Program-made: the position numbers and the translations under genes | Notes under the pieces: generated by a model | What the model was told of the DNA's origin: nothing | Database searches by the model: none | Seen by the model: the letters and a program-made list of their open reading frames with translations, nothing else | Assembly (NCBI GenBank): GCA_021814695.1 | Contig: JAKAHY010000006.1 | Span: forward strand, 49-64,048 | Direction of reading: 5' to 3' | DNA length: 64,000 nucleotides | Origin: a bacterium | GTDB lineage: Bacteria; Patescibacteriota; Minisyncoccia; UBA6257; JAGOQP01 | In this document: one piece after another, positions 1,902 through 64,000 of the stretch | Numbering within the stretch: position 1 is the stretch's first letter | How the letters are laid out: the number at the start of each line of letters is the position of its first letter

Positions 1902-2249
1902 ATGCATACATTCACAGAATTATTAAAAAATATTAGGGAAGAAGGAGAGCTAACACAAGAAGAATTGGCGCGTGCAATAGGCGTTTCCACAATCTTAATA
2001 TCCATGGTTGAGAGTGGCCAAAAAGATGTGTCGAAAAATCTTGTAGTAAGGCTTGCGAAAGGACTCGACGTTCATCCCAGCTCAATCGCTCCCTTTGCAT
2101 TCATCGATAAGAGCTCCGAATTGAAAAAGACCACTGGCATAGAAAAAACGCTGGTGTCTTTGGGTGAAAGATTACAAGATCATTTAATCATGATCAAGTC
2201 AAAGAGATTAAAAAAATATGTTTCGCGCCCAGAGATATCCGCGAATTAA
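1902..2249 (+). CDS. HTH XRE-family transcriptional regulator
   Basis: LTQEELARAIGVSTILISMVESGQKDVS helix-turn-helix; overlaps the downstream RT gene by 32 nt (operon). Confidence 0.7.
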   Translation: MHTFTELLKNIREEGELTQEELARAIGVSTILISMVESGQKDVSKNLVVRLAKGLDVHPSSIAPFAFIDKSSELKKTTGIEKTLVSLGERLQDHLIMIKSKRLKKYVSRPEISAN

Positions 2250-3189
2250 TATAAGGAGCAAGAATGAATTAGGGAAGCGCATTTCACCGAACAAACTACA
2301 ATTTCCTAAAACTCTCCAACTCATCAATGATGCATTGTCTAATTTTGATAAACAGTGGTACGACAGTGAACGCTCTGAGCCAGAGAAGGGAAAGTTTGTG
2401 CGAAGCGCTGTGGGAACTTCTCTTGGAAAATTACTTAAGCTTATAGACAGAAAGATTCTTGCTCCATACGATAGCTTAATACCGGATTTTATCTTTGGTG
2501 GTTTGTCTGGAAAAAGTCATATTCAGGCTGGCAGTTATTTATTGGGAAATAGACGCGAGAGAACATTGCTACGCCTAGATGTCTTTAGATTCTTTGAACA
2601 GATCCGGGAGCAAAGAGTTTTCAATTTCTTTTATGCGAAGTGCGGATGTAGTCAAAAAGCTGCTCGATTGATTTCTGGCCTTTGTTGCGTACCTTTGGGC
2701 CAAAAAGGATCTGGGTGTACTCAAAAAAGTTTGGCTCGTGGTTTTGCTACGTCGCCACGTCTCTCTATATGGTGCAACTTGGATATATTTTTAAGGTTGA
2801 GTTGGATGGTAAAGAAACAACTTCGTAACCATGATCCCAAAATTGCTGTTTATATTGATGATATCGGCATTACAGCTAGCCGGGTAAAAAAAGAACAAAT
2901 TGAAAAAGTGGCGCTACTCGCAGTGAAGATACTCACTGATTTTGATAGCAACCAATCACTCCCGATCAATCCTGAGAAAAAGGAAATTCTATCTGGTGCT
3001 GGCAAGATGAAACATCTCGGACTGAAATTGGGTAGAAATAAACTATCTATTGGAAATAAGGCGTTTTCTAAACTATTAGAAGTTAGACGTAAGTTAAAAA
3101 GCTCAGTATCGAAACGAGAGAGGTCGCGGCTAGTAAAGAAATACAAATCATACAAGAAATATAAACACCAGGTTATGAGGGCCAAATAG
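2218..3189 (+). CDS. Small (323 aa) retron/Abi-like reverse transcriptase with basic C-terminal tail
   Basis: RT motifs FGGLSGKS (1), LRLDVFRFFEQI (A), VFNFF...LISGLC (retron-like spacer, cf. Ec86 VFNLF...LTELC), ATSPRLSIWCNLDI (B), VYIDDIGI (C, YxDD), HLGLKLG (E); no maturase or endonuclease domain. Confidence 0.75.
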   Translation: MFRAQRYPRINIRSKNELGKRISPNKLQFPKTLQLINDALSNFDKQWYDSERSEPEKGKFVRSAVGTSLGKLLKLIDRKILAPYDSLIPDFIFGGLSGKSHIQAGSYLLGNRRERTLLRLDVFRFFEQIREQRVFNFFYAKCGCSQKAARLISGLCCVPLGQKGSGCTQKSLARGFATSPRLSIWCNLDIFLRLSWMVKKQLRNHDPKIAVYIDDIGITASRVKKEQIEKVALLAVKILTDFDSNQSLPINPEKKEILSGAGKMKHLGLKLGRNKLSIGNKAFSKLLEVRRKLKSSVSKRERSRLVKKYKSYKKYKHQVMRAK

Positions 3190-3246
3190 CCAATACTTCA
3201 TCACTACATATTATAATATTAATAAAAATAATTAGGATTATTGCTT

Positions 3247-4158
3247 ATGGCAAATAGTCATGATGCGAAATGGAAAAAGTTTGAGAAGGTTGTATATGAT
3301 ATACAAAAAGAATTAGCTCCTGATTCTGAAGTTAAGCTAGATGACGCTATCACAGGAGAAGACTCTAAGGTATCTCGCCAAATTGATATCAGCATCCGCC
3401 GCAATATAGGACAATACTCAATTCTGATTGTTATCGATTGTAAGGACTATGGTGTGCCGATCGACGTAAAAGATCTTGGTGAATTTGCTACTCTAGTCAA
3501 AGACGTAAGAGCTCACAAGGGCGCAATGATTTCTAGCAAGGGTTTTACGCCAGCCGCAGTAAGCTTGGCAAAAGCTCGTGGCATTGACACATTCACATTG
3601 ATAGATACTGAAAGCGTTGATTGGAAGGCATATGCCACAATTCCTGTATTATTGAGGAGTACTAATCTAAAAAGTTTTAGAGTAATATACAAAAACTTCC
3701 AAATTCTTCCTAGGGAGATTGTAGTCGCCGACCACAAGAAGCTGAAATTATATTCTCAGCAGCAAAAATTTATAGGCACCATTGGACGCTTAGTGCTTGA
3801 TAAATGGAATAATAAAGAAATAGAACATGCGTCTGGAGAGCACGAGGTTTTATTATCGGAAAATATTATGTTGGAAATAAATAGTCAGAAGTTTGGGCCG
3901 TTAGATGTAGCTGCTGTTGTATTGGTAGAGGAACACACTTATTTTAGCGATCTCCCGGTACACCTGAAAGGTTTTCATGATGCGCAAAAAGGTGGTGTAA
4001 TTACTAAATCGTTCGAAACGGACAAAATTTGGCCGGCAAAGATAGAGCAGGGATTAGTAGAGGGTTGGAGAGAGCTTAAGAATCCTACCGAACTATCGAT
4101 ACAACCACTTTTAGAATTCTATGTGTATGATTCCTATCCTAAAGAGGAGGTGGAGTAA
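3247..4158 (+). CDS. Mrr-like (restriction endonuclease, PD-(D/E)xK) N-terminal domain protein with unknown C-terminal domain; putative effector of the RT system
   Basis: ILIVIDCKDYGVPIDVKDLGEFATLVKDVRAHKGAMISSKGFTPAAVSLAKARGIDTFTLID matches the Mrr_cat pattern (QCK...V...F.G....KG.F.T.S.FT..A...A...I.LIDG). Confidence 0.65.
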   Translation: MANSHDAKWKKFEKVVYDIQKELAPDSEVKLDDAITGEDSKVSRQIDISIRRNIGQYSILIVIDCKDYGVPIDVKDLGEFATLVKDVRAHKGAMISSKGFTPAAVSLAKARGIDTFTLIDTESVDWKAYATIPVLLRSTNLKSFRVIYKNFQILPREIVVADHKKLKLYSQQQKFIGTIGRLVLDKWNNKEIEHASGEHEVLLSENIMLEINSQKFGPLDVAAVVLVEEHTYFSDLPVHLKGFHDAQKGGVITKSFETDKIWPAKIEQGLVEGWRELKNPTELSIQPLLEFYVYDSYPKEEVE

Positions 4159-4902: not shown

Positions 4903-5646
4903 ATGGAATTCAATCAAAACAACAACATTGTTAGACTTTGTCTTCGGGGGATAGGCATGGAACAGAAAGATAAACCAGAAGAAGCAAGCAGATTGTTTCT
5001 TCAGGCCTGGGATGAAGCGACAAACGATTTTGAAAAATTTATTTCAGCTAATTATATAGCCCGACATCAGAAAAATGCTTCCGACAAATTACAATGGCTC
5101 GAAACGGATTTACGGCTTGCATTAAAAATCAACGACGACACAGTAAAGAGTGCTTTTCCTCCTCTCTATTTAAATATCGCCAAATGCTATGAGGAGTTGG
5201 GCAATTTTGATAGAGCGAAAGAGAATTATGCATTGGCAACTTCGTTTAAGGACGAGCCCACAGATAAAGGCCCTTTTTATCACGGGACGAAAGCGGACTT
5301 GAAAGTTGGAGATTTGCTGGCGGCAGGAGGCGATTCTAATTACAAATCCGAAATCAAAATGAACCATATTTATTTTACCGCTCTTGTTCATGGGGCGGGA
5401 CTAGCCGCTTCGTTGGCAAAAGGCGATGGACGAGAACGTGTTTATATCGTTGAGCCAACAGGAGGTTTTGAAAATGATCCTAACGTTACAAACAACTACT
5501 TTCCCGGCAATCCGACGCGCTCGTATCGCTCTCAAGCGCCATTGAAAATCGTCGGCGAAGTAACCAATTGGATGAAAATTACACCCGAGGAACTCCAAAA
5601 ATGGCGGGAAAAGTTAGCTAACAATAAAGGAGAAATTATAAATTAA
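4903..5646 (+). CDS. TPR-like N-terminal domain fused to Arr-family (rifampin ADP-ribosyltransferase-like) domain
   Basis: C-terminal half FYHGTKADLKVGDLL...SNY...HIYFTA...RVYIVEPTGGFENDPNVTNNYFPGNPTRSYRSQAPLKIVGEV is near-collinear with Arr-2 (FYHGTKA..GDLL, IVEPTGPFEDDPNLT, FPGNPTQSYR, PLRIVG). Confidence 0.7.
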   Translation: MEFNQNNNIVRLCLRGIGMEQKDKPEEASRLFLQAWDEATNDFEKFISANYIARHQKNASDKLQWLETDLRLALKINDDTVKSAFPPLYLNIAKCYEELGNFDRAKENYALATSFKDEPTDKGPFYHGTKADLKVGDLLAAGGDSNYKSEIKMNHIYFTALVHGAGLAASLAKGDGRERVYIVEPTGGFENDPNVTNNYFPGNPTRSYRSQAPLKIVGEVTNWMKITPEELQKWREKLANNKGEIIN

Positions 5647-17756: not shown

Positions 17757-18830
17757 ATGAACTCTCTATTCAGAAAAATAGATTGGCAGCTTGCGGCAGC
17801 GGTTTTGGTCTTGGCATCTGCCGGACTACTGAGCCTTTTGAGTTCCAGCCCCGATTTATTTTATAAACAACTTTTATGGATCGGAGTCGGTATTCTGGCC
17901 GCCTGTTTTTTTACCTTAGTTGATTTGAGGTCTTTTTTCAGCCATAAGTCGGTTATCAAATGGCTATTTATAATGATGGTTCTGGTTCTGATATTTGCAT
18001 TTATGTTTGCTCCCAAGATTAAAGGCAACCGCTCTTGGATAGTGTTGGGCTCGTTTCAATTTCAACCTTCGGAATTTGCAAAAATTATTCTCATAATCGC
18101 ACTCTCATACTTTTTTTCAAAAGCTCATATAGGAATCGCGCGTTGGAAAACAATAATCTCGTCATTTTTTTATTTTGCGGTTTTGGGATTTCTCGTAGCA
18201 GCACTGCCGGATATGGGGTCGGCCTTCGTTCTGCTCGCTTTGTGGTTCGGGTATGTTCTGGTTTCCGGTATGCCACTCAAAAAAATACTCATTTCCATCC
18301 TGATTTTTGCGATTGCTTTTGCGCTTATGTGGGCAATGGTTTTAAAGGCTTATCAAAAAGAGAGAGTGCTGGGGATGCTTTTTCCGGAAAGAGACCCGAT
18401 GGGAATAAATTATCACGTCATTCAGTCCAAAATTGCCATCGGTTCGGGTGGAATTTTCGGACAAGGTTTCCGTCAGGGCACTCAGGTTCAACTTGGGTTT
18501 TTGCCTGAATCCCAAACTGATTTTATTTTTGCCGCTATTGCCGAAGAAGGGGGATTTTTGGCTGTAAGCGTACTTCTGGTTGCATTTGTCTGGATGCTTT
18601 TCCGTATACTCAAAATAGGCTCTTTAATAGACGGGAATTTCAACAAATTTTTGTGTCTTGGTACGGCAATTCTTTTTTTGACCCAGTTCGCTTTCAATGT
18701 GGGTTCTAACCTGGGTCTATTTCCTGTAGTTGGGGTGACGTTTCCTTTTGTCAGTTATGGAGGCACGAGCATGCTTGCCAACATGATTTTGGTGGGTATG
18801 ATACAGTCTGCCTGGATAAAAAGGAGCTAA
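17757..18830 (+). CDS. SEDS family peptidoglycan glycosyltransferase FtsW/RodA
   Basis: 10-TM protein, FQPSEFAKI and C-terminal SEDS motifs. Confidence 0.85.
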   Translation: MNSLFRKIDWQLAAAVLVLASAGLLSLLSSSPDLFYKQLLWIGVGILAACFFTLVDLRSFFSHKSVIKWLFIMMVLVLIFAFMFAPKIKGNRSWIVLGSFQFQPSEFAKIILIIALSYFFSKAHIGIARWKTIISSFFYFAVLGFLVAALPDMGSAFVLLALWFGYVLVSGMPLKKILISILIFAIAFALMWAMVLKAYQKERVLGMLFPERDPMGINYHVIQSKIAIGSGGIFGQGFRQGTQVQLGFLPESQTDFIFAAIAEEGGFLAVSVLLVAFVWMLFRILKIGSLIDGNFNKFLCLGTAILFLTQFAFNVGSNLGLFPVVGVTFPFVSYGGTSMLANMILVGMIQSAWIKRS

Positions 18831-56930: not shown

Positions 56931-57809
56931 ATGATTTCACTCAGGAATCTTATTGCTGATGCCCGCGGTCGAAACGTTGCCATAGGCCATTTCAATATTT
57001 CTGACTTGGCGATGCTTCATGCCATTTTTAACGCGGCTTTTGAGATCAAGGTGCCGGTAATTATCGGAGTTTCCGAAGGGGAGCGGGAATTTATCGGAGT
57101 AAAGCAGGCGGCTGATCTGGTCCATAGTTTCAGAGACGAATACAACTACCCGATTTTTATCAATGCCGATCACACACATTCGTTTGAAAAAATAAAAGAA
57201 GCCGTTGACGCCGGATTTGATGAGGTATTGTTTGATGGTGGCCAAAGACCCATAGAAGAAAACATTGCCATTACCAAGCAGGTTGTTGATTACGTGCGCT
57301 CACACAATGAATCCTACGCTACCGATATTATGGTTGAGGGGGAGCTGGGTTATATAGGTTCTGGTTCGGTTATTTTAGACAGAATCCCCGAAGGTGTTTC
57401 CATAAAAAAAGAAGATCTGACAAAACCGGAAGATGCTCAAAAGTTTGTTAAAGAAACGGGAGTCGATTTGCTGGCGCCGGCCGTAGGTAATATTCACGGG
57501 ATGTTTGCCGATGTTCCAGACCCCAATCTGGACATCCAGAGAATTGTTGAAGTTTATAATGCCGCGAATATCCCCCTCGTTCTTCATGGTGCGTCGGGAA
57601 ATTCGGATGACGATATTCGCCAGGCGATTGGTGCCGGAGCAAGAATAGTTCATGTCAGCACGGAGCTCAGAGCGGCCTGGAAGCGGGGGCTGGATTTGGC
57701 CCTTTTGTCCCACCCGAAAGAAATTGCTCCTTACAAGCTTTTTCCAGAAGTCGTTCATGAAGTTCAAAAAGTGGCGTCGGAAAAACTGAAAATATTCAAT
57801 AATCTCTAG
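56931..57809 (+). CDS. fba: Class II fructose-bisphosphate aldolase
   Basis: HFNISDL, INADHTHSFE, GELGYIGSGS, LVLHGASG. Confidence 0.85.
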   Translation: MISLRNLIADARGRNVAIGHFNISDLAMLHAIFNAAFEIKVPVIIGVSEGEREFIGVKQAADLVHSFRDEYNYPIFINADHTHSFEKIKEAVDAGFDEVLFDGGQRPIEENIAITKQVVDYVRSHNESYATDIMVEGELGYIGSGSVILDRIPEGVSIKKEDLTKPEDAQKFVKETGVDLLAPAVGNIHGMFADVPDPNLDIQRIVEVYNAANIPLVLHGASGNSDDDIRQAIGAGARIVHVSTELRAAWKRGLDLALLSHPKEIAPYKLFPEVVHEVQKVASEKLKIFNNL

Positions 57810-57903
57810 CGTATACTGTATGCCGTATATCGTATACCGGAGGTAAAAATAGAGTAGATAATTTTATTGATTTAGATAATCATAAGAAGCATTAGAATTT
57901 TAG

Positions 57904-59166
57904 ATGACTATAGATATTCTGACTAAAATAAAATACGGTCTACGGCGTACGGTTTATAGTATACGACGTGCGGTCTACGGTATACGATATACGGTATACG
58001 AATCAAACTCTTTCACTCTCGTGGAGCTTTTGGTAGTGGTTGGAATTATAGCGATATTATCGGCAGCGGTAATTGTGCTTCTTAATCCCACCGAATTACT
58101 AAAACGAGGAAGGGACTCTCAAAGAATTTCGGATTTAAAAAGCATCCAGACCGTAATTGAGCGCTATCAATACAGCGGAAACCGCATCGGATCGATGGGA
58201 TTGGCCAATACCATGTACGTTTCGCTAGTAGATGTGGGATCGTCATCCTGTGCCGATTTAGGACTTCCTAAGCTTTCGAATGGGTGGTCATATAGCTGTG
58301 TTACATCGACAAGTACTCTGCAGGATGTGGACGGAACCGGCTGGGTCCCGGTAAATATCTCTAGTACAGGACTGCTTTCTGATCTTCCTATAGATCCAGT
58401 TAATAGCACTTCAACTTCAAATTATTATTTTTATGCCTACAATCCTTCCGGTGGTTTCGTGCTGGGCGCTGCTAGTTTTGAAAGCAGTAAGTACGGCATT
58501 GCGGGTAGCAATGACGCTGTCTCTACCGACGGGGGGGCTAGCGATTATGCATACGAAGTCGGAACGAATACTACGTTTTATCAGACGCCCAATATTGCCG
58601 TAAACGGAAATTTCAATTCCTTAACTTCTCCCTATACGCCCGGATGGGATACGTCGCTGAACGGAACATACAGGCCGACAACAGGATTCAGTTCCGGTTA
58701 CAATGCCGGTGTTACCGCGCCGACTGTAGGATACCATGCCCATGCAACTCCGTCGTGCGGATTGAATAATTCCGGGTGTATGGAATACATCGACCAGAAT
58801 TGCCAGTTCGGATATTGCCACCGGTGGCTGGGAGATTCCCAAAGTTGGAGCAACCCCGCATCACTTTTTGGCTGGGGTCCCGGAACGGTAATCACCGTCA
58901 AAATGATGATCAAAGTGGATAACACAGGAAAGATTCCTCAGTTTGGAATCTATCATTATTCGGTCAGCGGGGGGGCGTACGCTTTTGGGACTGCTATTAC
59001 TCTTGTTACTTTATCCGCGGCAAATAAATGGCAGCTGATTACGCAACAATATACAATTGACAGTGATTGGGAGCTTAGTTCTCATACGGCATCTCTTTAT
59101 ATTTACGGGCACAATGGTACCGAAAACAAAATGTGGATAGATAGTGTTGAGGTCACTTATAAATAA
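57904..59166 (+). CDS. Type IV pilin-like (class III signal) secreted protein, paralogue of the DGR target but lacking the lectin domain
   Basis: SFTLVELLVVVGIIAILSAAVIVLLNP; N-terminal leader contains tandem nucleotide repeats (57925-57990). Confidence 0.6.
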   Translation: MTIDILTKIKYGLRRTVYSIRRAVYGIRYTVYESNSFTLVELLVVVGIIAILSAAVIVLLNPTELLKRGRDSQRISDLKSIQTVIERYQYSGNRIGSMGLANTMYVSLVDVGSSSCADLGLPKLSNGWSYSCVTSTSTLQDVDGTGWVPVNISSTGLLSDLPIDPVNSTSTSNYYFYAYNPSGGFVLGAASFESSKYGIAGSNDAVSTDGGASDYAYEVGTNTTFYQTPNIAVNGNFNSLTSPYTPGWDTSLNGTYRPTTGFSSGYNAGVTAPTVGYHAHATPSCGLNNSGCMEYIDQNCQFGYCHRWLGDSQSWSNPASLFGWGPGTVITVKMMIKVDNTGKIPQFGIYHYSVSGGAYAFGTAITLVTLSAANKWQLITQQYTIDSDWELSSHTASLYIYGHNGTENKMWIDSVEVTYK

Positions 59167-59991: not shown

Positions 59992-61446
59992 ATGAAAAGG
60001 ACTTTAGTATCGGACATAACTCAAAAAACCCTTTTAAGACGCTCTGGCAAAAGTGACCAGAGGGTCAATTTGCACAACCAAAAAGTAATAACCGTCCCCG
60101 TCAAAAAGGTTCTGGTTTCGTTGATATTGTCGTTGGCTATCTTTTCTTTCCTTCTTGGCGCAGCCAATGCCCCAATAAGTACCGGTTATCTTTTGGCGGC
60201 TTCGAATGTCGATACTCAAAGAGCGGCTTATGAGGCGCAATTGCAGGATTTGGAAAATCAGATTGCTCAGGATGAGCAGACAATTGCCCAATACAGTAAA
60301 CAAGGCAAGTCGCTTCAGTCGGAAATAAATAAGCTGAATGCCAAAATTGTCCAACTTAATCTTCAGATTAAAGCTATTACCTTGACCCTTAACAGTTTAA
60401 GCCAGGAGATTGATGATACCAAAACAAAAATCTCTCAGACAGAAGGCGATATTACCAAACAAAAGGATTATCTTTCCGCTACTCTTCAGAGCGTTTATGC
60501 CAGCGATAACACAAGTCCGATGGAAATGATGCTGGCCAACCCCAAACTTTCGGATTTTTTTCTTGATGTAAATAACCTGTTGGCCCTGCAAGATGAAGTT
60601 AGAACTACTCTGGAAAACATAGTCCAATTGAAAAGCCAGTTGATTGACCAGAAAGAAACTCTGGCCTCACAGTACGGCGATGCCCAGCAGTTGAAAGCGT
60701 ATCAATTAGCCCAGCAGCAGTCCGCAAAACAAACAGAGACCGATAAAAAAAGCCTGCTTCAGGTTACCAAGGGGCAGCAGTCAAAGTATGAACAATTGGT
60801 TGCCAGCAAACAAAAAACTGCAGCTCAAATCAGAAGCCAATTATTTGAACTTCTGGGTGGAGGAGAGCTTCAATTTGGTGAGGCCTATCGTTTGGCAAAA
60901 ATCGCCCAAGATGCAACGGGAGTTAGAGCTGCTTTAATTCTTGCTGTACTGGATAGGGAGTCGGCTCTCGGGAGAAACGTCGGTAAATGTAAATATAACA
61001 TCAACCCTTACTATCCGACAAAAGCCAGCAATCCGACCACGATGAATCCTAAGCGTGACATTCCTGTTTTTCTCCAGATTGTCCAGTCGCTGAATATCAA
61101 TCCCGACACGGTTACTGTCTCCTGCCCTATTCCACAGGACGGAGCTTACGGCGGAGGCATGGGCCCGGCGCAATTCATTCCTTCGACGTGGAATCTATAT
61201 GCCGATAAAATCGCTTCTTTGAGCGGACACAATCCGCCATCGCCCTGGAATAATCTGGATGCGTTTGTAGCAACCGCTCTTTATCTGAAAGATGCGGGCG
61301 CGACCGGTTCTCTTTACAATGAAAAAGTTGCGGCCGCCAAATACTATGCCGGAGGAAACTGGAAATATTATATAAATACTTACGGAGCGGCGGTTATCGC
61401 CAAAGCCAGCGATTTTCAGGATGATATAAATGTGCTAATCGGGTAA
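59992..61446 (+). CDS. Secreted coiled-coil protein with C-terminal MltB/Slt-like lytic transglycosylase domain
   Basis: N-terminal TM, long Q/L heptads, GPAQFIPSTW motif. Confidence 0.65.
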   Translation: MKRTLVSDITQKTLLRRSGKSDQRVNLHNQKVITVPVKKVLVSLILSLAIFSFLLGAANAPISTGYLLAASNVDTQRAAYEAQLQDLENQIAQDEQTIAQYSKQGKSLQSEINKLNAKIVQLNLQIKAITLTLNSLSQEIDDTKTKISQTEGDITKQKDYLSATLQSVYASDNTSPMEMMLANPKLSDFFLDVNNLLALQDEVRTTLENIVQLKSQLIDQKETLASQYGDAQQLKAYQLAQQQSAKQTETDKKSLLQVTKGQQSKYEQLVASKQKTAAQIRSQLFELLGGGELQFGEAYRLAKIAQDATGVRAALILAVLDRESALGRNVGKCKYNINPYYPTKASNPTTMNPKRDIPVFLQIVQSLNINPDTVTVSCPIPQDGAYGGGMGPAQFIPSTWNLYADKIASLSGHNPPSPWNNLDAFVATALYLKDAGATGSLYNEKVAAAKYYAGGNWKYYINTYGAAVIAKASDFQDDINVLIG

Positions 61447-61455
61447 AATAAAAAT

Positions 61456-62979
61456 ATGTTTGCTGGAAATAATCCGTTTACTCTCATAAAATTATTAGTT
61501 GCCACACCAATCGGAAAGATGCGGCGCATCTTCAAATGGGGCAAGTCGGCATCTTCCTTTACTCTCGTCGAACTCTTAGTTGTAATCGGTATCCTGGCCA
61601 TCCTTACCGCCGCAGTAGTAGTCGTTCTCAATCCCGCCCAGCTTATCGCCCAATCCCGTGATACCACCAGGTTTTCTGACATAGAAACTCTCAACAAAGC
61701 CCTCTCTTTATATCAAACCGATGGAGGCTCTTCTTTTGGCACATCCACTACCGTCTATGTCTCTATTCCCGACACTTCTACCTCCTGTGCCAACTTAGGT
61801 CTAGCTACTCTTCCTTCCGGATGGACTTATGCCTGTGTCACATCTGCCAATCTTCAAAAAACAGACGGTACCGGTTGGATTCCGGTCAATTTCAGTTCCG
61901 TTTCCACCGGCTCTCCCTTGAGTTCTTTACCCACCGATCCCATCAATGCCACCTCCACCAACAATTTCTATACCTACATTACTTCCGGTTCCAACTGGAC
62001 TGTTTCAGCTCAAACCCTTGAATCCACCAAATATGCTTATCGTGCCCAAACCGATGGAGGCACTTCTGCCACCGCTTATGAAGTCGGAAGCAGCTTAACC
62101 CTCTCTCCTTACATCTATCCTTCCAACTGGGTCAAGGTTCCCGGTAACTCTACCTTTGGCACCTCTGACTTCTGGGTTATGAAATATGATGCCAAATGTA
62201 TCCAGGCCTCAAACAGCACTCCTCTGACTGCTCCAGATACCGGATACCATACTTATTCCAATTCTTCTCAACCCTGTGTCGGACCCAATTACTACATCGC
62301 TTCTGCTCCAGGAGGATATCCGATAGCTAATATCTCTCATACCGATGCTCTGACTTATTGTGCTTCCATCGGAGCTCATCTTTTGACCAATGATGAATAT
62401 ATGACTATCGCCACCAACGCCATAAATCAAAACTCCAACTGGTCATCTGGAACTGTTGGAACCGGATATATCTATTCGGGGCATAACGACAATACTCCAC
62501 CCAATGCTCTAACTGCCGACTCCAACGATTCCAACGGTTATTCAGGAGAGACCAATACCGGAGGCAACCAAAGAAGAACTCTTACTCTCTCCAACGGCTC
62601 TGTTGTCTGGGATATGGCTGGAAATGTCTGGGAGCATGTTCAGCGAAGCGTAAATAACATTGGTGATCTTTCCACTACAATGACCGTTCCCGCCTGTACC
62701 GGAGGGACGGCAACCTGGCAATGGTGCGAGTTTCCCAATGTCTCCGCCTGGACATCCGATGTTGTTCAATCCAAAGTCGCCCCTCCTAATTCTTCCTGGA
62801 ACTCATCTCAAGGAGTTGGACAAGTGTTGACTTATGGTACCGGAGGAAATCAAGGGACAACCGCTTTCATTCGCGGCGCGGGTTGGGGCAACGGCTCTAG
62901 TGCCGGGGCGTTCGCGCTCCACTTGAGGTGGGTCACGGGCAGCGCAGACTCCTCTGTCGGGTTTCGTTGCTCTCGGTAG
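61456..62979 (+). CDS. DGR target: pilin-like N-terminus plus C-terminal C-type-lectin/FGE-fold variable domain (likely true start MRRIFKWGKSASS-FTLVELL at 61522)
   Basis: Prepilin-like SSFTLVELLVVIGILAIL; C-terminus FIRGAGWGNGSSAGAFALHLRWVTGSADSSVGFRCSR with GFRC ending typical of CLec variable regions. Confidence 0.7.
   Translation: MFAGNNPFTLIKLLVATPIGKMRRIFKWGKSASSFTLVELLVVIGILAILTAAVVVVLNPAQLIAQSRDTTRFSDIETLNKALSLYQTDGGSSFGTSTTVYVSIPDTSTSCANLGLATLPSGWTYACVTSANLQKTDGTGWIPVNFSSVSTGSPLSSLPTDPINATSTNNFYTYITSGSNWTVSAQTLESTKYAYRAQTDGGTSATAYEVGSSLTLSPYIYPSNWVKVPGNSTFGTSDFWVMKYDAKCIQASNSTPLTAPDTGYHTYSNSSQPCVGPNYYIASAPGGYPIANISHTDALTYCASIGAHLLTNDEYMTIATNAINQNSNWSSGTVGTGYIYSGHNDNTPPNALTADSNDSNGYSGETNTGGNQRRTLTLSNGSVVWDMAGNVWEHVQRSVNNIGDLSTTMTVPACTGGTATWQWCEFPNVSAWTSDVVQSKVAPPNSSWNSSQGVGQVLTYGTGGNQGTTAFIRGAGWGNGSSAGAFALHLRWVTGSADSSVGFRCSR
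62840..62976 (+). repeat. Putative DGR variable region (VR)
   Basis: GC-rich, adenine-depleted (~9% A over the last ~96 nt vs ~30% genome-wide) 3' end of the target gene. Confidence 0.5.
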
Positions 62980-63042
62980 TATTACCGTAGTTCACTGACC
63001 CACTAAAACCACAACATAGAACGGGCATAATTTAATATAACT

Positions 63043-63387
63043 ATGGACTATCAAAAACTTGTCACTTTCCAAAAATCATACGATTTTACAATCTGGCTGG
63101 TCCCGCTTCTTAACAAATTTCCCAAAAACCAGAGATTTACTCTTGCCCAGCAGATTGAAAACGCTTTAATAAATCTTCTTAAATTTCTGCAAAACGGGGT
63201 TTTATTGCAAGGACAAAAAAGATTAACCAACTGGCAGGAGGCCAGTCGTGAACTTGATGAAATTAGGTTACTTGTGAGAATTGCCAAGGATTTGCGTTTA
63301 TTGAGCATCAAGCAATATGGTCTGTGCGCCGAAAAAATAAATGAAATAGGCAAATATCTAAACGGTCTTGTAAAAAGCGCGTCATAA
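63043..63387 (+). CDS. avd: DGR accessory variability determinant (Avd, four-helix-bundle protein)
   Basis: ~114 aa helical protein between target and RT; YDFTIW...FPKNQRF...L..QI N-terminal pattern typical of Avd. Confidence 0.65.
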   Translation: MDYQKLVTFQKSYDFTIWLVPLLNKFPKNQRFTLAQQIENALINLLKFLQNGVLLQGQKRLTNWQEASRELDEIRLLVRIAKDLRLLSIKQYGLCAEKINEIGKYLNGLVKSAS

Positions 63388-64000
63388 AAAATTTGTTTTA
63401 TTTGGGCGTTTTAGCAACAGCGAGTTTAGTTTTTGATTGAGCCGAAATGAATCGGCATGTTTGGCATAGCCATGCCAGGCGGAGGAATATGGAGTGGAGG
63501 CGGTTAATTTCATCCGCCGGAATGCTCGGGAAACGGTGCTTTTGCGCAGGCGAGTGTGGTGTCTAAAAAGAGTCAGGCCGAGAAAATCAATCCTGTCTAT
63601 CGGCTGGACCCCGCTTCTTTTTTGATGAAGAGTAAGCTTTAGTTCTTGCTCTAAAAATATTTTTATATCCGATTGCCACGCGAGCAATGTCTTGGGTTTT
63701 GCATGAAATAAAATAAAATCGTCCATATATCGGATATAATATTTAGCGCGCAGTTTTTCCTTGATAAAATGGTCCAGTTTATTGAGATAGATATTGGCAA
63801 AAAGTTGGCTGGTCAGATTACCTATTGGCAGACCTTTTTCCCCGCGCTTGCTTTCTATAATTTTTTTGATGACAGCCAATAACAGTTCGTCTTTTATCTT
63901 ATCTTGAATCAAACTTATTAAAATTTTGTGATCAACGGAGTCAAAATATTTTTTGATATCAAATTGCAGAAAATACGCCCGACTTTTGAAATTAAGAGAA
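63382..64000 (-). CDS. DGR-type reverse transcriptase, C-terminal part (gene continues beyond the window)
   Basis: GLPIGNLTSQLFANIYL (motif B), YIRYMDDFILF (motif C), IDFLGLTLF (motif E/7). Confidence 0.8.
   Translation of the reverse strand, partial: SLNFKSRAYFLQFDIKKYFDSVDHKILISLIQDKIKDELLLAVIKKIIESKRGEKGLPIGNLTSQLFANIYLNKLDHFIKEKLRAKYYIRYMDDFILFHAKPKTLLAWQSDIKIFLEQELKLTLHQKRSGVQPIDRIDFLGLTLFRHHTRLRKSTVSRAFRRMKLTASTPYSSAWHGYAKHADSFRLNQKLNSLLLKRPNKTNFL

Follow-up and report, generated by a model that had tools for sequence, protein, structure and literature searches.

A chromosomal diversity-generating retroelement with an inverted template-reverse transcriptase module and a pilin-like, lectin-headed target in a patescibacterium

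We analysed a 64,000-nt stretch of the patescibacterial contig JAKAHY010000006.1 (assembly GCA_021814695.1), here called the window, whose end carries a diversity-generating retroelement (DGR). The DGR target gene, which encodes the variable protein, is an open reading frame (ORF) of 507 aa on the plus strand (61456..62979) with Pfam matches to N_methyl and FGE-sulfatase. It contains a prepilin-type (class III) signal and N-terminal methylation motif (61549..61617, plus strand; PF07963, residues 32-54; KSASS/FTLVELLVVIGILAILTAAVV, the slash marking the predicted cleavage site), and Pfam and Foldseek place a head domain of FGE-sulfatase/C-type lectin (CLec) fold at approximately residues 235-507 (62158..62976, plus strand). 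The ORF ends in ...GAGWGNGSSAGAFALHLRWVTGSADSSVGFRCSR*, and its last 120 nt (62860..62979, plus strand) form the variable repeat (VR), delimited by ungapped alignment to the template repeat (TR) of sibling contigs. The avd accessory gene (114 aa; 63043..63387, plus strand; Pfam bAvd, NCBIfam DivGenRetAVD) lies downstream. Convergent with it is the gene for the DGR reverse transcriptase (RT; RVT_1), of which the window holds the C-terminal 205 codons (residues 127-331 of 331; 63382..64000, minus strand) before the gene runs off the window end; the stop codons of the RT gene and avd overlap by 6 nt. The sibling contigs supply the off-window remainder: the RT gene starts with an ATG at window-equivalent position 64377, and it is preceded on its own strand by a structured spacer of 181 nt (~64378-64558, window-equivalent) and by the 120-nt TR (~64559-64678, window-equivalent). 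The TR, spacer and RT gene are on the opposite strand to the target gene and avd, and the canonical target-avd-TR-RT order is absent.

The last 120 nt of the target gene are 10% A and 66% GC, compared with 29% A and 43% GC for the window, and only 0.02% of 120-nt windows are equally A-poor. Another extremely A-poor 120-nt stretch, at 18157, was rejected as a VR; it is a transmembrane segment of FtsW/RodA. A sequence-only reading of this DNA, made without database searches, had singled out the A-poor, GC-rich end of the target gene, with its CLec/FGE-type ending, and had set the limits of the VR at 62840-62976. The segment is real (FGE-sulfatase match, 5.3e-08), whereas homology to the TR corrects its limits to 62860-62979, comprising the 39 final codons and the stop codon. 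The hypervariable part is 62869-62954 (86 nt). The same reading had stated that the TR was absent from the window and had predicted it upstream of the RT gene, beyond 64000. Both statements hold: an A-tolerant ungapped scan, a repeat search and a reverse scan with the true TR found no TR-like copy on either strand of the whole 64 kb, nor a second VR for the sibling-derived TR, and the TR was found in sibling contigs where predicted. Three such contigs with an identical Avd, L001, L002 and L003, reach past the window end. L001 aligns collinearly with the window, its coordinates being those of the window minus 53042, and BLAST of the VR against the sibling loci located the TR at L001 11517-11636 (minus strand), on the same strand as the RT gene and upstream of it. 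The TR spans ~560 to ~680 nt past the end of the window, and 181 nt separate it from the RT start. It was seen in L001, L002 and L003, with partial copies in L007 and L008, and always on the RT strand.

Of the 120 nt of the TR, 30 are adenines, and its codons include 11 of the form AAY. In an ungapped alignment, the window VR differs from it by 18 mismatches at TR adenines and 3 elsewhere (Fisher p 7.4e-11); the repeat matching except at adenines that the sequence-only reading had advised seeking thus exists, with 18 of 21 mismatches at TR adenines. The other VR alleles have 13-19 mismatches at adenines and 1 elsewhere, with a range of 1-3 non-adenine mismatches over the whole set of alleles. 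Approximately 3.5e16 protein variants can be encoded from the TR, and stop codons are unreachable from its AAY codons. Relative to the TR, the window VR has G for T at 62910 and at 62928; only the closely related L005 allele has these two changes as well, and each adjoins substituted adenines.

We compared the VR among seven assemblies and found six distinct alleles. Variable columns number 28, of which 26 are at TR adenines, and one or more alleles carry a substitution at 27 of the 30 TR adenines. Over 10,958 nt, the window and L002 differ at 17 positions, 16 of which are within 62869-62954. The contrast between 16 differences inside the VR and 1 in ~10.9 kb outside it, together with the adenine bias, argues for recent adenine-directed rewriting, and the DGR is apparently active in nature. 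The hypervariability that had been foreseen at VR positions is therefore present between assemblies, and in near-identical strains of different samples almost all differences are at TR-adenine positions within 86 nt, a clean natural example of apparent DGR activity. Several short contigs start or stop inside the VR or TR, as expected if the population is heterogeneous there, since assemblers break at such places. A search of JGI metagenome contigs with an IUPAC pattern of the TR (N at adenines) gave no matches and no extra VR alleles. In L003, the TR (1628-1747) carries one A-to-C change (GGAACT to GGACCT), and the VR of L007 (111-230) has C at that site; the L003 and L007 contigs may represent one strain in which the GGACCT site is no longer mutable.

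The VR and TR share an identical 21-nt stretch, A-free and GC-rich (GTCGGGTTTCGTTGCTCTCGG), at their 3′ ends. This is followed by a fixed difference, T in the VR (stop codon TAG) and C in the TR (CAG), and then by diverging sequence; the boundary base is T in 6 of 6 VR alleles and C in all TR copies. From this comparison, we infer that 62956..62982 (plus strand) contains a boundary resembling the initiation of mutagenic homing (IMH) site, at which information transfer would stop, compatible with an IMH/IMH* pair.

Avd matches Pfam bAvd (3.4e-19) and scores 84.8 bits, above the cutoff of 80, with the NCBIfam equivalog DivGenRetAVD, in agreement with its initial description as a 114-aa Avd-like gene. 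An identical Avd protein sequence occurs in 11 public contigs. The RT gene, initially described as convergent and DGR-like, matches Pfam RVT_1 (1.7e-16; 63382-63999, minus strand) and contains the motifs IGNLTSQLFANIYL, YIRYMDDF and IDFLGL. We compared the full-length RT from L001 (331 aa) with known RTs. Its match to Bordetella bRT (8ub7) extends over residues 3-313 (1.9e-49, 171.9 bits), and the alignment includes the DGR-type motif IGxxxSQ (GIPIGSLTSQLFAN / GLPIGNLTSQLFAN); the RT has IGNLTSQ and YMDD. The best group II intron RT match is much weaker (1.8e-21, 79.9 bits), as are retron-type matches (~1e-16, 64.6 bits), so that the RT is of the DGR type, as first supposed, rather than of the group II or retron type. 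Against NCBIfam, the RT scores 143.9 bits for TIGR04416 (cutoff 300) and 56.2 bits for retron_St85_RT (cutoff 235), and Rfam identified no intron or retron RNA in the window or L001. The RT has thousands of relatives; those with names are from Patescibacteria, Wolfebacteria or Pacebacteria, with one from Aenigmarchaeota, which fits a place for the RT within the radiation of DGRs in the CPR (candidate phyla radiation) and in DPANN.

A public gene call gives the RT 400 aa; we rejected it, as it overlaps the TR. We used instead the ATG at L001 11335 (MNQDLF...), because it is kept in the relative L094 and matches the bRT N-terminus. This start leaves a 181-nt spacer between the TR and the RT gene. 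An 86-aa ORF just upstream of the TR (L001 11675-11935, minus strand) was rejected as a gene; it has stop codons in L003. No avd remnant was found upstream of the TR.

The TR and spacer fold far better than shuffled sequence (z -5.7). They are also conserved: L001 and L003 have 4 substitutions in the TR and spacer (~310 nt), compared with ~20 in the ~270 nt upstream of the TR. We aligned the TR 3′ end and spacer of L001 with those of four relatives (L093, L094, L098 and L099) and identified a three-helix RNA element (L001 11446-11522, minus strand) in which CGGYA, the final bases of the TR, forms pairs with a segment ~70 nt downstream. In the alignment, 88.5% of cells are paired, compared with 37-52% when the partners are slid, and 13 pairs have compensatory changes, compared with 2-6 in the slid controls. 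In 500 shuffles, the observed values were reached by none on four of five measures and by 2 of 500 on the fifth. Two motifs within it, GGCCCGA and CTGYGCC, are invariant. Immediately ahead of the RT start is another hairpin (CCCCGCG...CGCGGGG), which relatives retain with altered bases in the stem. These five sequences suggest that, although inverted, the module has the same RNA architecture as its canonical relatives.

The closest relatives that we examined, L093 and L094, encode pilin-CLec targets 63-64% identical to the target here, and both have the canonical target-avd-TR-RT layout on one strand; the L094 RT is 61% identical to the DGR RT. At L093 8335-9365, two ORFs (159 and 165 aa) stand in place of one RT gene, possibly as the result of a frameshift, of decay or of an assembly error. 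We surveyed 80 more distant related RT loci from metagenomes, 34 of which have a detectable A-biased repeat pair. The VR and TR are on the RT strand in 34/34 of these, with the TR before or after the RT gene, and an opposite-strand VR occurs in 0/34; the convergent layout is thus less common, as the sequence-only reading had stated. The pilin motif, present in L093 and L094, occurs in 0/30 of the related targets. Convergent avd-RT junctions with overlapping stop codons are found in nine contigs from different samples and assemblers, and RT-spacer-TR continuity in five contigs. The layout is therefore not an assembly artefact. Surveys already list DGR cassettes with components on different strands (PMC11661182), so the inverted layout is rare in this clade rather than new in kind. 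It implies that the TR and RT gene have their own promoter and that avd would be expressed separately.

We then considered the target protein. Its true start is probably M22, at 61519, with the first 21 ORF codons not translated; this start is preferred because most homologues are without the 21-codon extension. The extension is common to the closest homologue only and contains a degenerate second pilin signal, FTLIKLLVA (61477-61501), which has 80% DNA identity to the sequence encoding FTLVELLVV (61558-61582); it is probably a remnant. Pfam matches N_methyl at residues 32-54 with 22.9 bits (cutoff 21.2) and FGE-sulfatase at residues 268-398 (5.3e-08); NCBIfam matches to the prepilin N-terminal parts of GspG/GspH pseudopilins are well below cutoffs. 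A class III signal is present, KSASS/FTLVELLVVIGILAILTAAVVVVL, in which F+1 is F35 and E+5 is E39. In an alignment with 30 homologues, F+1 and E+5 are invariant, the -1 residue is G, S or A, and the hydrophobic alpha-1N segment is kept. Two pilin-domain cysteines, C111 and C127, are also invariant, and a C-terminal scaffold, FxRGGxW...GxF.L.L.W..G....VGFRCAR, is conserved around the hypervariable positions.

An AlphaFold2 model of the target (predicted local distance difference test score [pLDDT], 84; predicted template modelling score [pTM], 0.79) has a long N-terminal helix of ~50 residues at 37-88 (helices 37-57 and 60-88), then beta strands at 99-230 that form a small beta domain (pLDDT ~90), and then the large head. 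The model thus predicts the pilin arrangement of an extended alpha-1 helix lying against a globular beta domain. Foldseek comparison of the model with the Protein Data Bank (PDB) gave as best match the Thermus aquaticus variable protein TaqVP (5vf4; E 8e-08, probability 1.00), followed by formylglycine-generating enzymes (FGE) and Mtd. TaqVP is likewise a DGR variable protein, and its CLec/FGE-type fold also has the VR at its C-terminal end. It differs from the target in having no pilin module, and the two have 17% sequence identity; the TM-scores are low (0.29-0.39) because only the head domain superposes.

The target has at least 838 homologues. The best 120 are full length and 46-98% identical to it, and most have both N_methyl and FGE-sulfatase. 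Named sources are Paceibacterota or Patescibacteria, and their annotation reads either [quoted passage not shown] or "SUMF1/EgtB/PvdO family nonheme iron enzyme," the latter being misleading. A protein exactly matching the target is absent from public records, in which the identical Avd is present, because the VR varies. A profile search of contigs with the target alignment was swamped by the generic pilin motif FTLIELL and returned mostly unrelated pilins from many phyla. A paralogue (57904-59166, 420 aa) is encoded 2.3 kb upstream of the target gene. It has the pilin module in common with the target (39% identity), and its head is different and unannotated and contains no VR. The 5′ end of the paralogue gene and the sequence upstream of it (57807-58001) contain direct and inverted GTATACG-type repeats that the ORF call translates as an odd N-terminal extension. 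Other pilin-CLec homologues, full length and 49-59% identical to the target, are encoded at L090 6001-7590, L092 6001-7413, L095 6001-7497 and L096 6001-7506. In L090, the pilin-CLec gene follows the gene for fructose-bisphosphate (FBP) aldolase, like the pilin paralogue of the window.

We conclude that the locus is very probably a chromosomal DGR that rewrites the C-terminal lectin head of a pilin-like target, which is probably shown on a type IV filament. In the proposed mechanism, which is textbook-like and leaves the known DGR mechanism unchanged, the minus-strand TR-spacer-RT module would be transcribed as its own unit. The RT and the convergently encoded Avd would copy the TR RNA into cDNA, misincorporating opposite adenines, and the cDNA would take the place of the 120-nt VR with which the target gene ends. 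Replacement would halt at the A-free, GC-rich, IMH-like stretch just before the stop codon, and the outcome would be roughly 10^16 possible target proteins. The target would be a modular protein with a class III signal, processed by a prepilin peptidase, followed by a long alpha-1 helix, a small globular domain and the variable lectin head. Its most likely location would be a type IV filament of Patescibacteria, or the tip of such a filament, where it would be a ligand- or host-binding adhesin. A more specific version, in which the target is a genuine type IV pilin of modular build, located at the tips of the host-contact pili of episymbiotic Patescibacteria and the DGR is a host- or ligand-range switch, is possible rather than probable.

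Several observations weigh against this interpretation. The TR was taken from sibling assemblies (98.5-99.7% identity) and not from the contig of the window itself, and the VR variation is a comparison between assemblies rather than within one sample. The T-to-G differences at 62910 and 62928 are outside TR adenines. Directly 3′ of the VR, the search for a hairpin or cruciform gave only a 5-bp stem (CGGTA/TACCG) across the stop codon, with a z of -0.07 relative to shuffles, and this stem is not kept in the relatives L093 and L094. A promoter and terminator scan around the TR-RT module performed no better than on shuffles, and no TR-RT promoter stands out. With regard to the target, the -1 residue of its pilin signal is Ser, where Gly is canonical, and none of the 31 window ORFs scanned against Pfam is a prepilin peptidase or pilus assembly gene. 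Finally, the pilin-CLec genes of L090, L092, L095 and L096 have no Avd, RT or TR in their flanks (up to 6 kb; <1 kb downstream for L095). The head domain is therefore independent of a neighbouring DGR in these four cases, and the adhesin scaffold would thus be older or broader than its link to one.

Among the alternatives, the element could be a fossil that no longer diversifies, with VR differences that are old polymorphisms or products of allele recombination. Exchange of that kind seems to have affected the target gene, in which L001 and the window differ at 12 sites in the N-terminal half (61938-62193) in a pattern that looks like ordinary allelic exchange, and the split RT of L093 indicates that decay occurs in the clade. 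However, the RT, Avd and TR are intact here, the TR and spacer are conserved, and the differences are concentrated in the VR (16, compared with 1 in ~10.9 kb elsewhere) and at TR adenines (26 of 28 variable columns). A fossil is therefore very improbable. It is harder still to credit that the convergent layout is an assembly artefact of a canonical locus, caused by the inverted repeats that the VR and TR form (~85% identical, 1.6 kb apart), or that the RT belongs to a nearby group II intron or retron. Contigs do often break at the VR and TR, and the window does hold a second, retron-like RT gene at 2218-3189. Yet the convergent junction recurs in nine contigs and RT-spacer-TR continuity in five, and a flip between the VR and TR would invert avd too, which is not observed; the full-length match to bRT, the group II score far below its cutoff and the lack of any intron or retron RNA family argue against a non-DGR RT.

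The most probable alternative accepts the DGR and disputes the pilus: the N-terminus of the target would serve as a membrane anchor that stays uncleaved, or the target would be a pseudopilin belonging to an apparatus for secretion or competence, with its head at the surface or in the envelope. The N_methyl score is marginal, the GspG/GspH matches are well below cutoffs, the -1 residue is Ser and the window has no pilus machinery. In addition, a DprA gene nearby hints at competence functions, and a protein of ~480 aa is far larger than a major pilin. Against this, F+1 and E+5 are invariant in the 30 homologues and the hydrophobic alpha-1N segment is conserved, and the model places a small beta domain behind an N-terminal helix of ~50 residues, as in pilins. 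The paralogue 2.3 kb upstream combines the same pilin module with a different head, and in Streptococcus sanguinis it is established that type IV pilins can be large and modular and bear adhesin or lectin modules (PMC8179133, PMC9934059). We consider a target outside the pilus unlikely, and a DGR acting on a pilin-like protein probably shown on a type IV filament remains our preferred interpretation. The sequence-only reading had reached a similar view, describing a pilin-like N-terminus and hence a surface or pilus-tip adhesin, as reported for DGRs of the CPR. The N-terminus is pilin-like (N_methyl, 22.9 bits) and the adhesin role is plausible by inference, whereas we found no open-access paper of the kind invoked, and the pilin motif is missing from the sampled related targets.

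Cellular DGRs of Patescibacteria (CPR) and DPANN were reportedly described by Paul et al. in 2017. The element analysed here resembles the CPR/DPANN cellular DGRs that form "DGR clade 2" of Roux et al. 2021 (PMC8144416) in the names of its RT relatives, its chromosomal housekeeping context and its FGE-sulfatase-type CLec target; this placement is by likeness rather than by a tree. The neighbours include genes for ribosomal protein L25, FBP aldolase, transketolase and RpoB/C, and beyond the window end L001 continues into genes for release factor 1 (RF-1), ribosomal protein L31 and 16S rRNA. According to Roux et al. 2021 (PMC8144416), CPR-clade targets are typically without recognisable transmembrane or other conserved domains; in contrast, the target here has a clear prepilin N-terminus. 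The sampled related loci differ in the same respect, as well as in VR strand. We found no pilin terms in the supplements of Roux 2021, and among the open-access papers searched, which did not include Paul et al. 2017, none describes DGR-diversified type IV pilins, including those of CPR DGRs. The only trace that we found of type IV pilin targets of CPR DGRs is a one-line domain listing in PMC11661182.

The DGR of Bordetella phage BPP-1 (mtd-avd-TR-brt) is similar in its CLec-fold target with a C-terminal VR, its four-helix-bundle Avd, its AAY-rich TR and its IGxxxSQ RT. It also has a structured spacer between TR and RT and an A-free, GC-rich VR 3′ end, with the TR differing just downstream. 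In contrast to the chromosomal DGR of a cellular genome found here, the BPP-1 DGR is phage-borne, and its target is a tail-fibre tip rather than a pilin-like protein. A further difference is that here TR-spacer-RT is inverted relative to target-avd, with no avd sequence before the TR, and avd is therefore not co-transcribable with the TR. The hairpin next to the VR in BPP-1, found in many DGRs and not universal, was not detected here. The locus has the features that define a DGR; what is unmatched, the gene order and the VR-proximal hairpin, is not defining. The TR-spacer-RT module apparently still works when inverted and uncoupled from avd transcription, which has implications for what is required at the 5′ end of the DGR RNA.

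The only pilus-linked DGRs that we found in the literature searched are those of the type V pili of Bacteroides. There, too, a DGR rewrites the CLec head of a modular pilin, which would be at the pilus tip and bind ligands. However, those pilins are lipoproteins assembled by strand exchange, whereas the target here has a class III signal and an alpha-1 helix. The Bacteroides DGRs belong to another phylum and are often on integrative and conjugative elements or prophages, some with an Msl factor, none of which was seen here. The modular type IV pilins of S. sanguinis (vWA module in PilB, lectin module in PilC; PMC8179133, PMC9934059) likewise join a pilin module to a large C-terminal adhesin or lectin module, and two proteins of this build are encoded in the window, having a pilin module in common and heads that differ. 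The S. sanguinis modules are static, in contrast to the CLec/FGE head that a retroelement rewrites here; filament assembly has been shown for them, whereas the target is known from its sequence and a model. The DGR is tied to a pilin-like adhesin family in ultra-small, probably host-dependent bacteria, in which partner recognition is an open question and a role for the pilin-like adhesin is a hypothesis. Members of the pilin-CLec family variously have a canonical DGR, an inverted DGR in one lineage, or no neighbouring DGR. If the more specific version with host-contact pili is true, the at least 838 pilin-CLec proteins of Paceibacteria would attest to programmed hypervariation having been gained and lost repeatedly on a single adhesin scaffold.

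The flanks of the DGR have further features. The gene at 59992-61446, which stops 10 nt before the target gene, encodes a protein of 484 aa whose N-terminal half is coiled-coil and which has an SLT_2 lytic transglycosylase domain; this protein could remodel the cell wall for filament assembly. On the other side, L003 and L001 are 98.5% identical through the target end, avd, the RT gene, the TR and ~270 nt upstream of it, and diverge completely upstream of L001 11909. Past this point, L001 leads to a palindrome region and then the RF-1, L31 and 16S genes, and L003 leads to RNaseH-like, Fic and ClpB genes. The divergence would be either a strain rearrangement or a chimeric join beside the DGR. 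The palindrome region is 1.2 kb of mostly non-coding DNA upstream of the TR (L001 12023-13193) with five copies, one degenerate, of a perfect 18-nt palindrome, GCTGTGCTATAGCACAGC. The copies flank a small Trp-repressor-like helix-turn-helix (HTH) gene (L001 12695-13105), and other short tandem repeats are present among them. The palindrome is absent from the 64-kb window, and the region lies ~2-3 kb beyond the window end.

The second RT gene of the window (2218-3189, plus strand; RVT_1, 7.7e-12) is unrelated to the DGR. Its best PADLOC match is a retron type VI RT (5.8e-28), and the protein contains YIDD and lacks the DGR motif IGxxxSQ. An overlapping XRE-like HTH ORF, read from the sequence, precedes it (1902-2249), and an Mrr_cat nuclease-like gene follows it (3241-4158), so that 1902-4158 looks like a retron or defence-type island separate from the DGR. 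Beside this retron-like island, 4903-5646 encodes an Arr-ms rifampin ADP-ribosyltransferase domain (4.9e-46) fused to a TPR-like N-terminus.

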